A program made the translations under genes and the position numbers. This document shows positions 15,015-23,281 of a DNA stretch of 40,868 nucleotides, piece by piece. The notes below the pieces were generated by a model. It was not told the DNA's origin and ran no database searches. It saw only the letters and a program-made list of their open reading frames with translations. This DNA is from a virus (taxonomy: Duplodnaviria > Heunggongvirae > Uroviricota > Caudoviricetes), in the IMG/VR virus record IMGVR_UViG_2917875804_000004, positions 1 to 40,868 of that record; one strand, written 5' to 3'. Numbering within the stretch: the stretch's first letter is position 1; every line of letters begins with the position of its first letter.

Positions 15015-15676
15015 ATATCTACGAAAGAATTGATGGCAGCAACTACCGAAATATTTGGGTAGCTGGCGACCTGCACGGATGCTACACGAACCTGATGAAC
15101 AAACTGGATACGATTGGATTCGACACCAAAAAAGACCTGCTTATCTCGGTTGGCGATTTGGTTGATCGTGGTGCAGAGAACGTTGAATGCCTGGAATTAA
15201 TCACATTCCCCTGGTTCAGAGCTGTACGTGGAAACCATGAGCACATGATGATTGATGGCTTATCAGAGCGTGGAAACGTCAATCACTGGCTGCTTAATGG
15301 CGGTGGCTGGTTCTTTAATCTCGATTACGACAAAGAAATTCTGGCTAAAGCTCTTGCCCATAAAGCAGATGAACTTCCGTTAATCATCGAACTGGTGAGC
15401 AAAGATAAAAAATATGTCATCTGCCACGCCGATTATCCTTGTGACGAATACGAGTTTGGAAAGCCAGTTGATCATCAGCAGGTAATCTGGAACCGCGAAC
15501 GAATCAGCAACTCACAAGACGGGATCGTGAAAGAAATCAAAGGCGCGGACACGTTCATCTTTGGTCATACGCCAGCAGTGAAACCACTTAAATTTGCCAA
15601 CCAGATGTATATCGATACCGGCGCAGTGTTCTGCGGAAACCTCACATTGATTCAGGTACAGGGAGAAGGCGCATGA
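15011..15676 (+). CDS. ninI: Ser/Thr protein phosphatase (lambda NinI-type)
   Basis: 221-aa product with metallophosphatase motifs GDLHG, GDLVDRG, GNHE. Confidence 0.9.
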
Positions 15677-16296
15677 GACTCGAAAGCGTAGCTAAATTTC
15701 ATTCGCCAAAAAGCCCGATGATGAGTGACTCACCACGGGCCACGGCTTCTGACTCTCTTTCCGGTACTGATGTGATGGCTGCTATGGGGATGGCGCAATC
15801 ACAAGCCGGATTCGGAATGGCTGCATTCTGCGGTAAGCATGAACTCAGCCAGAACGACAAACAAAAGGCTATCAACTATCTGATGCAATTTGCACACAAG
15901 GTATCGGGGAAATACCGTGGTGTGGCAAAGCTTGAAGGAAATACTAAGGCAAAGGTACTGCAAGTGCTCGCAACATTCGCTTATGCGGATTATTGCCGTA
16001 GTGCCGCGACGCCGGGTGCAAGATGCAGAGATTGCCACGGTACAGGCCGTGCGGTTGATATTGTCAAAACAGAGCTGTGGGGGAGAGTTGTTGAGAAAGA
16101 GTGCGGAAGATGCAAAGGTGTCGGCTATTCAAGAATGCCAGCAAGCGCCGCATATCGCGCTGTAACGATGCTAATCCCAAACCTTACTCAACCCACCTGG
16201 TCACGCACTGTTAAGCCACTGTATGACGCTCTGGTGGTGCAATGCCACAAGGAAGAGTCAATCGCAGACAACATTTTGAATGCGGTCACACGTTAG
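15673..16296 (+). CDS. Q: Late-gene antiterminator Q
   Basis: 207-aa product matching lambda Q by memory, including the Cys-rich zinc site. Confidence 0.9.
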
Positions 16297-16338
16297 CAGC
16301 ATGATTGCCACGGATGGCAACATATTAACGGCATGATA

Positions 16339-16367
16339 TTGACTTTTTGAATAAGGTTGGGTAAATT
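16339..16367 (+). promoter_or_regulatory. Late promoter PR-prime (-35 TTGACT, -10 TAAATT) with overlapping qut site
   Basis: Canonical hexamers with 17-bp spacing directly downstream of Q. Confidence 0.6.
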
Positions 16368-16507
16368 TGACCCAACGATGGGTTAATTCGCTCGTTGTGG
16401 TAGTGAGATAAAAAGAGGCGGCGCTTACTACCGATTCCGCCTAGTTGGTCACTTCGACGTATCGTCTGGAACTCCAACCATCGCAGGCTGAGAGGTCTGC
16501 AAAATGC

Positions 16508-16570
16508 AATCCCGAAACAGTTCGCAGGTAATAGTTAGAGCCTGCATAACGGTTTCGGGATTTTTTATTT
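16508..16570 (+). terminator. tR-prime terminator ending the short 6S-like leader transcript
   Basis: Long stem ATCCCGAAAC...GTTTCGGGAT followed by TTTTTTATTT. Confidence 0.6.
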
Positions 16571-16645
16571 GGGTCAGTCGTATAAAGGTCATTACGGAAG
16601 GCTGTTAACCTTCTTATCGTGGTTCGAGTCCACGCTGTCCCGCCA
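16571..16645 (+). tRNA. tRNA, anticodon GUU (Asn) by manual cloverleaf; one mismatch each in acceptor and D stems
   Basis: Hand-folded: perfect T arm CGTGG-TTCGAGT-CCACG, anticodon arm GAAGG-CTGTTAA-CCTTC, encoded CCA. Confidence 0.55.
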
Positions 16646-16650
16646 AACAT

Positions 16651-16726
16651 GCTGGTTTAGCTCTAATGGTAGAGCAGTCGCCTTGTAAGCGAATGGGTAG
16701 CGGTTCAAGTCCGTTAACCAGCACCA
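16651..16726 (+). tRNA. tRNA, anticodon UGU (Thr) by manual cloverleaf
   Basis: Hand-folded 76-nt cloverleaf: acceptor GCTGGTT/AACCAGC, D stem GCTC/GAGC, T loop TTCAAGT, encoded CCA. Confidence 0.65.
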
Positions 16727-16844
16727 TAACTGAGCCGTAGCCACTGGCTATCCTGAATTCATCAGTGATAGTTACGCTGCGGCCTTCTTTTTTCCCCTTC
16801 CCAATATAAGAACTACGCAATCCGTTACTGGCGGAGGCGTTGCT

Positions 16845-17060
16845 ATGAAATCAATGGACAAAATCTCAACTGGCATTGCCTACGGAACATCTGCTGGTAG
16901 TGCAGGATACTGGTTTTTGCAGTGGTTGGATCAGGTCAGTCCGTCACAGTGGGCAGCGATTGGAGTGCTTGGAAGCCTTGTGTTGGGTTTTCTCACTTAT
17001 CTGACAAATCTGTATTTCAAAATCAGAGAAGACAGACGAAAGGCTGCGAGAGGTGAATAA
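16845..17060 (+). CDS. S: Pinholin S21 with dual-start motif (MKSM...)
   Basis: 71-aa product matching phage 21 S by memory; two Met starts 3 codons apart. Confidence 0.9.
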
Positions 17061-17557
17061 TGCCTCCATCATTACGAAAAGCCGTTGCTGCTGCTATTGG
17101 TGGCGGGGCTATTGCCATAGCATCTGTGTTAATCACTGGCCCAAGTGGTAACGATGGTCTGGAAGGTGTGAGACATAATCCTTACAAAGACATAGTTGGT
17201 GTATGGACTGTATGTTACGGGCATACAGGAAAAGACATCATTCCCGGTAAAACGTATACCGAAGCAGAATGCAAAGCCCTCCTGAATAAAGACCTTGCCA
17301 CGGTCGCCAGACAAATTAACCCGTACATCAAAGTCGATATACCGGAAACAACGCGCGGCGCTCTTTACTCGTTCGTTTACAACGTGGGTGCAGGCAATTT
17401 CAGAACATCGACGCTTCTTCGCAAAATAAACCAGGGCGATATCAAAGGCGCATGTGACCAGCTACGTCGCTGGACATACGCTGGCGGTAAGCAATGGAAA
17501 GGGCTGATGACCCGTCGTGATATTGAGCGTGAAGTCTGTTTGTGGGGGCAGCAATGA
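17060..17557 (+). CDS. R: SAR endolysin (phage 21 R-type lysozyme)
   Basis: N-terminal Gly/Ala-rich signal-arrest-release segment followed by lysozyme domain. Confidence 0.9.
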
Positions 17558-17997
17558 GCAGGTTAACCGCGATTATCTCCGCTCTGATTATCTGCATCAT
17601 CGTCTGCCTGTCATGGGCTGTTAATCATTACCGTGATAACGCCATCGCCTACAAAGACCAGCGCGATAAAGCCACATCCATCATCGCTGATATGCAGAAG
17701 CGTCAACGTGATGTAGCAGAACTTGACGCCAGATACACAAAGGAGCTTGCTGATGCTAACGCGACTATCGAAAGTCTCCGTGCTGATGTTTCTGCTGGGC
17801 GTAAGCGGCTGCGCTTCAATGCAGTCTGTCCCGACATGCATAAAATCACCGCCGCCTCCGGCGTGGATGATGGCGCCAGCCCCAGACTTACTGACACCGC
17901 TCAACGGGATTATTTCGTTCTCAGAGAGCGCATCGAAACCATAACTAACCAATTGAATGGCCTGCAAGAGTATGTGAGATCACAGTGTTCATATTAG
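17554..17997 (+). CDS. Rz: i-spanin Rz
   Basis: N-terminal TM helix, coiled-coil periplasmic domain; overlaps the R stop. Confidence 0.8.
17753..17944 (+). CDS. Rz1: o-spanin Rz1 lipoprotein, embedded in the +1 frame of Rz
   Basis: Lipobox LLGVSGC and Pro-rich segment [14 protein letters not shown] as in lambda Rz1. Confidence 0.7.
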
Positions 17998-18845: not shown

Positions 18846-19034
18846 GGGCGGAAGGCGCGCGGATTTTCGCTATTTATGAAAATTTTCCGGTTTAAGGCGT
18901 TTCCGTTCTTCTTCGCCGTAACCTAATGTTTTTATTTAAAACACCCCCTGAAAAGAAAGGAAACGACAGGTGCTGAAAACGGGCTTTTTGGCCTCTGTCG
19001 TTTCCTTTCTCTGTTTTTGTCTGTGGAATGAACA
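18846..19034 (+). promoter_or_regulatory. cos region (cosN and cosB) upstream of nu1; putative 12-nt overhang GGGCGGAAGGCG at 18846-18857
   Basis: Flanks match the remembered lambda cos context (TTACG before, CGCGG-TTTTCGCTATTTATGAAAATTTTCCGG after). Confidence 0.5.
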
Positions 19035-19553
19035 ATGGAAGTCAACAAAAAGCAGCTGGCTGACATTTTCGGCGCGAGTATCCGTACCATTCAGAACTGG
19101 CAGGAGCAGGGAATGCCCGTTCTGCGAGGCGGTGGGAAGGGTAATGAGGTGCTTTATGACTCTGCCGCCGTCATAAATGGTATGCCGAAAGGGATGCTGA
19201 AATTGAGAACGAAAAGCTGCGCCGGGAGGTTGAAGAACTGCGGCAGGCCAGCGAGACAGATCTCCAGCCAGGGACTATTGAGTACGAACGCCATCGACTT
19301 ACGCGTGCGCAGGCCGACGCACAGGAGCTGAAAAATGCCAGAGACTCCGCTGAAGTGGTGGAAACTGCATTCTGTACTTTCGTGCTGTCGCGGATCGCAG
19401 GTGAAATTGCCAGTATTCTCGACGGGATCCCCCTGTCGGTGCAGCGGCGTTTTCCGGAACTGGAAAACCGACATGTTGATTTCCTGAAACGGGATATCAT
19501 CAAAGCCATGAACAAAGCAGCCGCGCTGGATGAACTGATACCGGGGTTGCTGA

Positions 19554-19579
<26 letters not shown>
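19035..19579 (+). pseudogene. nu1: Terminase small subunit Nu1; frame broken at AAA run 19175-19177
   Basis: ORFs 19035-19331 and 19355-19579 are the N- and C-terminal parts of lambda Nu1; remembered lambda sequence has GTCATAAAATGG where this window has GTCATAAATGG. Confidence 0.85.

Positions 19580-23261
<3,682 letters not shown>

Positions 23262-23281
<20 letters not shown>

Follow-up and report, generated by a model that had tools for sequence, protein, structure and literature searches.

A tandem tRNA-Asn(GUU)/tRNA-Thr(UGU) module in the late leader of a lambda-like prophage

The stretch of viral DNA analysed here in full (40,868 nt, hereafter the window) carries a tRNA-Asn(GUU) gene and a tRNA-Thr(UGU) gene in tandem, directly after a lambda-type late terminator and ahead of a phage 21-type lysis cassette. 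The pair corresponds to a tRNA module already known from the late leader of lambdoid and P22-like phages. In the best explanation of the locus, which we hold with a probability of roughly 0.75, the module supplies functional phage elongator tRNAs, with tRNA-Thr and, most likely, tRNA-Asn each substituting for the corresponding host tRNA.

Organization of the locus

ARAGORN found exactly two tRNA genes in the whole 40.9-kb window. They and their neighbours are arranged as follows.

15673..16296, + strand: Q, a lambda-type antiterminator gene (207 aa); ORF with homologues annotated as Q or antitermination protein in HK446, Kapi1 and mEp506
16339..16367, + strand: late promoter PR' (TTGACT, 17 nt, TAAATT), assigned by identity to lambda; HK446 annotates the same site as PR'
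16508..16570, + strand: tR' intrinsic terminator at the 3' end of the 6S leader (hairpin 16508-16562, U-run 16561-16570)
16571..16645, + strand: tRNA-Asn(GUU), 75 nt (ARAGORN; Rfam RF00005)
16646..16650, + strand: spacer AACAT, 5 nt, read from the sequence
16651..16726, + strand: tRNA-Thr(UGU), 76 nt (ARAGORN; Rfam RF00005)
16734..16793, + strand: terminator-like element 3' of the tRNA genes, a conserved hairpin (16734-16783) followed by CUUCUUUUUU (16784-16793)
16845-17060, + strand: S21 pinholin (ORF), first gene of the phage 21-type lysis cassette (16845..17997)
17060-17557, + strand: SAR endolysin (ORF) of the same cassette
17542-17997, + strand: Rz spanin (ORF) of the same cassette

A promoter scan of 15500-17500 returned PR' as the sole promoter-like site. 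PR', the 6S leader and tR' (16300-16568) share 97.8% identity with lambda 44513-44781, and the lambda homology upstream of the pair stops at 16568. The tR' hairpin folds at -26.9 kcal/mol (z -5.4); a simple terminator scan missed it because its stem has an internal branch. On the other side of the pair, the downstream hairpin begins seven bases past the CCA of tRNA-Thr, and a folding energy of -40.1 kcal/mol (z -3.9) was obtained for the 127-nt stretch containing it (16724-16850). This hairpin is common to lambda (44945-45003), HK75 and most of the viral contigs, and the U-run that follows it is present only at the S21-type junction, as in this window and in phage 21. Other types of tRNA array have clear intrinsic terminators at most 80 nt downstream. 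The lysis cassette region shows 98.9% identity to phage 21 (39581-40021 and beyond), and in the matching cassette the phage 21 record annotates an antiholin/holin class II, a SAR endolysin and an i-spanin. Within 16250-16900, no Rfam family other than tRNA was found at E <= 1. The rest of the window has the make-up of a mosaic lambda-like prophage and is arranged in prophage order, with int at the left end (1-1306), cos near 18850 and then lambda-like head and tail genes. Homopolymer indels are present in int, nu1 and B, and the prophage may be defective. The source genome was not found among complete RefSeq E. coli genomes, the best match there being 97.3%.

Two full-length elongator tRNA genes

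An earlier note on this DNA had described two tRNA genes with anticodons GUU and UGU upstream of the lysis cassette. When tRNA prediction was run, both regions were called as tRNA by ARAGORN and Rfam, and the boundaries and anticodons proved exact (16571-16645 gtt and 16651-16726 tgt, both on the plus strand). Against RF00005, with a gathering score of 29 bits, tRNA-Asn scored 55.3 bits (E 2e-9) and tRNA-Thr 63.2 bits (E 1e-11), each over the full model (1-71/71), and the minimum-free-energy folds of both are cloverleaf-like. Also as described earlier, the genes have encoded CCA ends and lie 5 nt apart, between Q/PR'/tR' and the S21-type cassette, and the first of them starts at the first base after the tR' T-run: the T-run ATTTTTTATTT (attttttattt) ends at 16570, and the very next base is G1 of tRNA-Asn. 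A discriminator G followed by CCA closes tRNA-Asn (16642-16645), and a discriminator A followed by CCA closes tRNA-Thr (16723-16726).

The identity set of E. coli AsnRS comprises the anticodon G34-U35-U36 and the discriminator G73, and that of ThrRS comprises G1-C72, C2-G71, G35 and U36. The window tRNA-Asn carries the former, with the loop CUGUUAA and a G before CCA at 16642; the window tRNA-Thr carries the latter, with the acceptor strands GCUGGUU / AACCAGC and the anticodon UGU. The two are confirmed as genuine bacterial elongator tRNA genes. The tRNA-Asn sequence is 100% identical in phage 21, HK446 and ST64T. The tRNA-Thr is 98.7% identical to the copy of phage 21 and HK446, which is the same sequence in both phages, and the sole difference is U14 in place of C14 in the D-loop. 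Comparison with the host tRNAs gave lower values, 61.5% identity for phage Asn versus asnT and 70.5% for phage Thr versus thrU; both are closer to tRNAs of other phages, such as Mosigvirus Asn and N4-like Thr.

The acceptor- and D-stem mismatches noted earlier in the first tRNA are present, as U4·U69 and U13·U22. In tRNA-Thr we observed a further mismatch, G27·A43, that the earlier note did not list, next to U28-A42 and together with a pyrimidine at position 14.

Conservation and covariation

Homologues were recovered with a 19-nt pattern of the Asn D arm, giving 18 distinct Asn variants from 119 viral contigs; the Thr set comprised 20 variants. Among the Asn variants, six stem pairs are altered on both sides, namely five compensatory Watson-Crick switches (5:68, 6:67, 7:66, 28:42 and 29:41) and pair 4:69. 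U4·U69 is retained in 16/18 variants and position 39 is C in 17/18, while the retention of U13·U22 in 18/18 holds by construction, because the search pattern fixed the D arm. Four pairs of tRNA-Thr are changed on both sides (3:70, 5:68, 6:67 and 49:65), whereas G27·A43 and U28-A42 are invariant in all 20 variants; pair 1:72 is kept in 19 of them and pair 2:71 in every one. Neither the 500 shuffles nor any slid register attained the observed covariation score of either tRNA. Conserved mismatches standing beside covarying pairs indicate selection rather than decay.

These data bear on the suggestion, made in the earlier note for the first gene, that it may be degenerate or an integration target remnant. 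The two stem mismatches of tRNA-Asn had prompted this reading, and decayed forms do occur at this locus elsewhere: nothing but the first 24 nt of tRNA-Asn is left in Stx2 phages with a Q21-type cassette, the second gene of ST64T is non-canonical, and one viral contig carries a phage/host chimeric tRNA-Thr. An att remnant normally copies only the 3' part of a tRNA, whereas both genes here are full length, end in CCA and lie more than 15 kb away from int. Furthermore, the attP of HK446 resembles thrW and not the tRNA-pair locus. The 55-bit Rfam score of tRNA-Asn, its identity in three phages and the compensatory changes around its fixed mismatches contradict the suggestion, and covariation together with full-length structure rules out tRNA-Asn as a degenerate gene or att remnant. 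We accordingly give hardly any weight to a decaying pseudo-tRNA or an integration or recombination target remnant, be it the first gene or both.

A module shared among temperate enterobacterial phages

The earlier note missed that the pair is a published and widely annotated module. It is annotated in phage 21, SfI, Kapi1, mEp506, BTP1 and Oslo. The SfI paper of 2013 described tandem Asn(GUU) and Thr(UGU) genes downstream of Q and one or both tRNA genes at the same position in Sf6, ST64T, PS3 and phage 21 (PMC3636060); for phage 21, that paper cites Guo, Kainz & Roberts 1991 (PMID 1704887). Of 5426 complete E. coli genomes, 369 carry the 156-nt pair, labelled tRNA-Asn/tRNA-Thr by PGAP, and at least 119 IMG/VR contigs match the 19-nt Asn D-arm pattern. 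In one-per-species genomes, the same pattern was found only in Enterobacteriaceae and in a few gut MAGs, which are probably mis-binned.

Among the viral contigs, a Q21-type terminator precedes the Asn gene in about 85, lambda tR' in about 13 and one of three other terminators in further contigs, and one context lacks a terminator. If there is a terminator, the Asn gene begins directly after its U-run in nearly all cases. The module is found after at least two unrelated Q/terminator cassettes and before differing lysis cassettes. Asn-Thr is the array in 95 contigs and Asn-Gly(UCC) in 7; the rest are larger and add Phe(GAA), Arg(UCU) or Gly(UCC). The spacers AACAT and AATAT are equally common, with 45 contigs each. 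Lambda keeps both flanks (window 16300-16568 and 16728-16786), and its slot holds 163 nt of unrelated sequence. We considered this lambda spacer as a decayed tRNA pair and rejected it, as its global alignment score was no better than shuffles (z 0.7) and ARAGORN found no tRNA there.

Such a distribution could also be read as that of a neutral passenger, spreading through a mosaic junction with the T-run on its left and the hairpin on its right and bringing no selective benefit. The flanks shared among lambda, 21 and HK-type phages could serve as recombination joints, and only about 7% of E. coli genomes carry the module. However, covariation that preserves the structure and an anticodon arm that hardly varies point to purifying selection, and a benefit on old+ hosts has been reported from experiment (10.64898/2026.07.10.737580 and PMC12445682), which leaves the passenger reading with very little probability.

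Expression and processing

With no promoter-like site but PR' ahead of the pair, Q-dependent read-through of tR' is the evident route of expression, and the position of the pair suggests that it is transcribed from PR' in this way, as the earlier note had proposed. Polymerase from PR' would halt at tR' unless modified by Q; the Q-modified polymerase would read through, and the tRNAs would be made together with the lysis and structural mRNA. With zero spacing at the junction, the read-through transcript would need an RNase P cut exactly after the tR' U-run for tRNA-Asn to acquire its 5' end, and the CCA ends, being encoded, should need trimming only. Since terminator-like elements bracket the pair, both a low Q-independent output from the constitutive PR' and a Q-dependent burst could result.

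The same junction might be taken to mean that the tRNAs act chiefly as RNA-processing signals, whose RNase P and 3' cuts detach the 6S/tR' leader and set the 5' end and stability of the late mRNA, with decoding being secondary. G1 of tRNA-Asn does adjoin the U-run with zero spacing in at least five terminator contexts, and a conserved hairpin follows the last tRNA. Nevertheless, lambda and many relatives keep both flanks and function without the tRNAs, and a processing signal needs no conserved anticodons, identity elements or CCA. The Thr allele, moreover, has a demonstrated decoding phenotype (10.64898/2026.07.10.737580 and PMC12445682). We therefore consider a primary processing function very unlikely.

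tRNA-Thr as a probable substitute under P2 OLD

Two recent studies give the tRNA-Thr of this module a function. Govande et al. (NAR 2025, PMC12445682) found that the phage 21 tRNA-Thr shields cells from P2-OLD and is itself resistant to cleavage, a resistance attributed to a shortened anticodon stem and an altered CNG motif (C28U/G42A), both of which are required. A July 2026 preprint reports that the Thr(UGU) of HK446 restores plating of OLD-sensitive phages (bioRxiv 10.64898/2026.07.10.737580). According to the preprint and the article, the phage 21/HK446 allele rescues translation of ACA codons, and OLD toxicity is rescued by the phage allele and not by extra host thrU (PMC12445682, 10.64898/2026.07.10.737580). 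In recB cells, by contrast, a single Thr tRNA failed to rescue lambda or OLD toxicity (10.64898/2026.07.10.737580). The authors of the preprint favour a 'temperate lifestyle' reading of the HK446 tRNA because HK446 also has a protein inhibitor, Oad2 (10.64898/2026.07.10.737580).

The anticodon arm of the window tRNA-Thr, GUCGC-CUUGUAA-GCGAA, is identical to that of phage 21 and HK446, and the features of the tRNAThr21 class are all present: a UGU anticodon, U28-A42 and an unpaired G27·A43. Given that the window tRNA-Thr is the tested allele bar U14 and shares its arm, a counter-defence or substitute role is experimentally grounded: by analogy with the demonstrated C14 allele, the U14 form should act as an OLD-resistant substitute. 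It would replace the single-copy host tRNA-ThrU that reads ACA and so help to decode ACA-rich phage genes, and translation would continue after OLD, the Toprim nuclease of a resident P2 prophage, has destroyed host tRNA-ThrU. Resistance would stem from the 27·43 mismatch and C28U/G42A, both of which are in the window tRNA-Thr. Among the known OLD triggers and inhibitors looked for, Gam, Abc2 and Erf are absent from the window; all that was found, alongside RecT and gp157, is 21 aa of Gp33 and a broken N-terminal piece similar to the Oad2 of HK446.

Codon usage, which the earlier note had proposed to compare for the late genes, offers an alternative account, in which the tRNAs top up the host pool for over-used codons with no defence role. 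The comparison, with 37 annotated K-12 genes as host reference, bore this out for Thr and not for Asn. ACA occurs 11.4 times per 1000 codons in the late genes and 12.8 times in all phage genes, against 6.5 in the K-12 sample (odds ratios 1.75, p 2e-4, and 1.98, respectively), and E. coli has a single tRNA-Thr(UGU) gene, thrU. Asn codons, however, are not enriched (38.6 versus 35.7 per 1000 in the K-12 sample, p 0.27). In SfI, similarly, ACA stands at 17.3% versus 7.1% in the host, and its authors found no rationale for the Asn tRNA (PMC3636060). The codons most over-used by the window phage, AGA, AGG, AUA and CGA, come without any phage tRNA, and ACA enrichment peaks in the early genes, which are translated before PR'-driven tRNA appears. 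Finally, as the phage allele succeeds against OLD toxicity where additional thrU fails, sequence and not dosage alone must matter. Pure codon supplementation is thus an unlikely explanation of the pair, albeit one with some support from ACA usage.

tRNA-Asn as a possible substitute

The accessible text of neither OLD study mentions the Asn gene beside the phage 21 or HK446 tRNA-Thr. We propose that tRNA-Asn, too, most probably stands in for its host counterpart. Host tRNA-Asn(GUU) is described as one of the slower OLD substrates by Govande et al. (PMC12445682), and in the 2026 tRNA-seq it falls outside the five OLD targets with the strongest depletion (10.64898/2026.07.10.737580). The PARIS nuclease AriB cleaves between positions 40 and 41 of Lys(UUU), Thr(UGU) and Asn(GUU) and requires U39, as the U39A change abolishes tRNA-Lys cleavage (PMC12409363). 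Both tRNA species of the module are therefore among the three main targets of AriB. The window Asn reads UAAC39-C40-U41 versus UAAU39-C40-C41 in the host, and the window Thr reads UAAG-C-G (G39, G41) versus UAAU-C-A, so that both are substituted at U39 and/or position 41. The window tRNA-Asn is also without the paired CNG motif found in host asnT. OLD and AriB both cut host tRNA-Asn as a secondary target, and the phage tRNA deviates from it at the reported determinant positions; it is therefore plausible that the phage tRNA-Asn substitutes for nuclease-cleaved host tRNA-Asn.

Loss of the CNG motif was considered as a conserved feature of the Asn family and rejected: pair 28:42 is C-G in 7 of the 18 variants, which recreates a perfect paired CNG, and the loss of the OLD motif is hence not conserved. 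In addition, tRNAs without U39 or CNG are common, so the absence of either is weak evidence by itself.

A stronger version of the substitute reading is that temperate enterobacterial phages carry the Asn-Thr tandem as a dedicated two-tRNA cassette for counter-defence against Toprim anticodon-stem nucleases. Its targets may be P2 OLD and PARIS AriB, carried by rival P2 prophages and P4 satellites; the Asn gene may be a nuclease-resistant stand-in for host tRNA-Asn, with C39, U4·U69 and U13·U22 as possible resistance determinants; and placement between tR' and the second terminator-like hairpin may provide a trickle from PR' in addition to a Q-driven burst. We regard this version as tentative and lean against it. 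tRNA-Lys(UUU) is the main AriB target and is required for escape from PARIS (PMC12409363); the module lacks this tRNA and therefore could not neutralise PARIS alone. The other array members also fit a pure anti-OLD logic poorly, in that neither Phe nor Arg-UCU is a listed target and CNG is retained in the phage Gly-UCC.

Comparison with known systems

The closest relative of the module is in phage 21 (OL657228, 39591-39746), with Asn at 100% and Thr at 98.7% identity and the AACAT spacer in both. There the terminator (39543-39590) is followed by tRNA-Asn from 39591, with the same zero spacing as in the window, and the downstream hairpin and the S21/R21 lysis cassette are shared as well. The upstream cassette of phage 21, however, is of the Q21 type with an unrelated terminator, in contrast to the lambda-type Q/PR'/tR' of the window. 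Conversely, HK446, Kapi1 and mEp506 are 98.6-99.0% identical to window 16300-16788, which covers PR', tR' and both tRNAs, and continue into lambda/P22-type holin cassettes instead of S21. The HK446 record is without tRNA annotation and the preprint credits this phage with one tRNA (10.64898/2026.07.10.737580), whereas ARAGORN finds both.

Stx phages of the 933W type carry ileZ-argN-argO in the same slot, between Q and stx, with the same presumed Q-dependent expression; their tRNAs are Ile-CAU, Arg-UCG and Arg-UCU, with a rare-codon rationale, as opposed to Asn and Thr in the window. The 24-nt Asn-gene relic of some Stx phages likewise lies directly after the Q21-type terminator. Among virulent phages, T5 deploys nuclease-resistant tRNA-Lys/Thr/Asn against PARIS AriB, and T4, T5 and Bas32 deploy nuclease-resistant tRNA-Thr against P2 OLD. 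Their variants and the window share the tRNA species (Thr-UGU and Asn-GUU) and the substituted positions, 39/41 for AriB and 28/42 plus 27·43 for OLD. The window differs from them in having two tRNAs only, without tRNA-Lys, in the Q-controlled late leader of a temperate phage. P1, a temperate enterobacterial phage, has independently come to carry adjacent Asn(GUU)-Thr(UGU) genes, with a 2-nt spacer, though in the C1-controlled ban operon, so that location and regulation differ. Its Asn is unrelated in sequence (57.7% identity) and its Thr is 80.8% identical; P1 Thr has a full 5-bp anticodon stem with a paired CNG and P1 Asn a host-like UAAUC, both of which the window lacks.

In summary, these genes are already annotated and published, so that finding them here is not new in itself. 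The window contributes a one-base variant (U14 for C14) of the Thr allele tied to escape from P2-lambda interference, next to a tRNA-Asn that is conserved, covarying and altered at positions relevant to both Toprim tRNases known to cut host tRNA-Asn. Should this tRNA-Asn turn out to be a substitute that resists the nucleases, the module would represent, in compact form, a tRNA-based counter-defence of temperate phages against several targets, and the joint occurrence of Asn and Thr in lambdoid phages and P1 would be explained.

In phage HK446, ARAGORN called both tRNA-Asn and tRNA-Thr at 572-727 (L144), and its tRNA-Asn is identical to that of the window. No tRNA is annotated in the HK446 GenBank record, and the phage was credited with a single tRNA, Thr, in a 2026 preprint (10.64898/2026.07.10.737580). 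Position 14 of the window tRNA-Thr (16664) is a pyrimidine, in contrast to the near-universal A14. The window has U here, and the phage 21 and HK446 genes, like most copies, have C; in the window, U14 could pair with A21, resulting in a longer D stem. Immediately 3' of tRNA-Thr, there is a conserved hairpin:

16734-16793, (+): conserved hairpin, followed in the window by a U-run

The same hairpin occurs in lambda (44945-45003), in HK75 and in most of the viral contigs. Given that a U-run comes next in both the window and phage 21, it resembles a terminator. Intrinsic terminators are also found within 80 nt downstream of tRNA arrays in other contexts.

A tandem of adjacent Asn(GUU) and Thr(UGU) genes is also present in phage P1 (L013, 1425-1578), where the two genes are separated by a 2-nt spacer and sit in the C1-controlled ban operon. 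The P1 tRNA sequences are unlike those of the window pair: P1 Thr retains the paired CNG motif of the type associated with OLD, the tRNA-cutting nuclease of P2 prophage, and P1 Asn retains a host-like UAAUC. The enterobacterial phage tRNA-Asn pattern was further matched in metagenome-assembled contigs assigned to Christensenella, Segatella, Paraprevotella and Collinsella (L134, L136, L140 and L141), which are most likely mis-binned phage contigs.

Comparison of the window with HK446 revealed differences in the recombination locus, at two intervals:

3756-4292, (-): difference from HK446
6422-6818, (-): difference from HK446

The window encodes RecT (5523-6425) and gp157 (5057-5539), whereas HK446 carries Erf and Abc2 instead. 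In the window, the OLD trigger Gp33 is reduced to its first 21 residues, followed by a 103-aa gene (phrog_3486) at the position of lambda gam. Only a broken N-terminal fragment remains of Oad2, the OLD inhibitor of HK446, and it adjoins an ORF for a Pol III theta (HOT-like) protein. Three essential genes of the window are disrupted by small indels, each in a homopolymer run:

1-1306, (-): int
19035-19579, (+): nu1
21679-23281, (+): portal gene B

An A7 run near 640 divides int into 503-1306 and 1-639; nu1 bears a 1-nt deletion at 19177; and gene B, compared with lambda, has gained TT at 21930-21931 and lost 1 nt at 22430. These indels reflect either a defective prophage or homopolymer errors of the assembly.

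In ST64T and PS3, the tRNA-Thr slot is occupied by a 72-nt tRNA-like sequence (ST64T, L009, 1586-1662), the anticodon arm of which has a 5-bp stem and a CUAA tetraloop. ARAGORN made no call for this sequence, which is therefore either a pseudo-tRNA or a tRNA-like RNA. Stx2 phages with a cassette of the phage 21 Q type retain the terminator U-run and the first 24 nt of tRNA-Asn, beyond which they diverge (Stx2a_WGPS6, L006, 1201-1234), with ileZ-argN-argO about 200 nt farther on. This arrangement is a recombination scar within the Asn gene. Among the IMG/VR contigs matched by the tRNA-Asn D-arm pattern, one carries a chimeric tRNA-Thr. Its 5' acceptor strand and D arm are of phage type, and everything from position 26 onward, CCA end included, matches host thrU. 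This chimera suggests that the phage tRNA recombined with its chromosomal counterpart.
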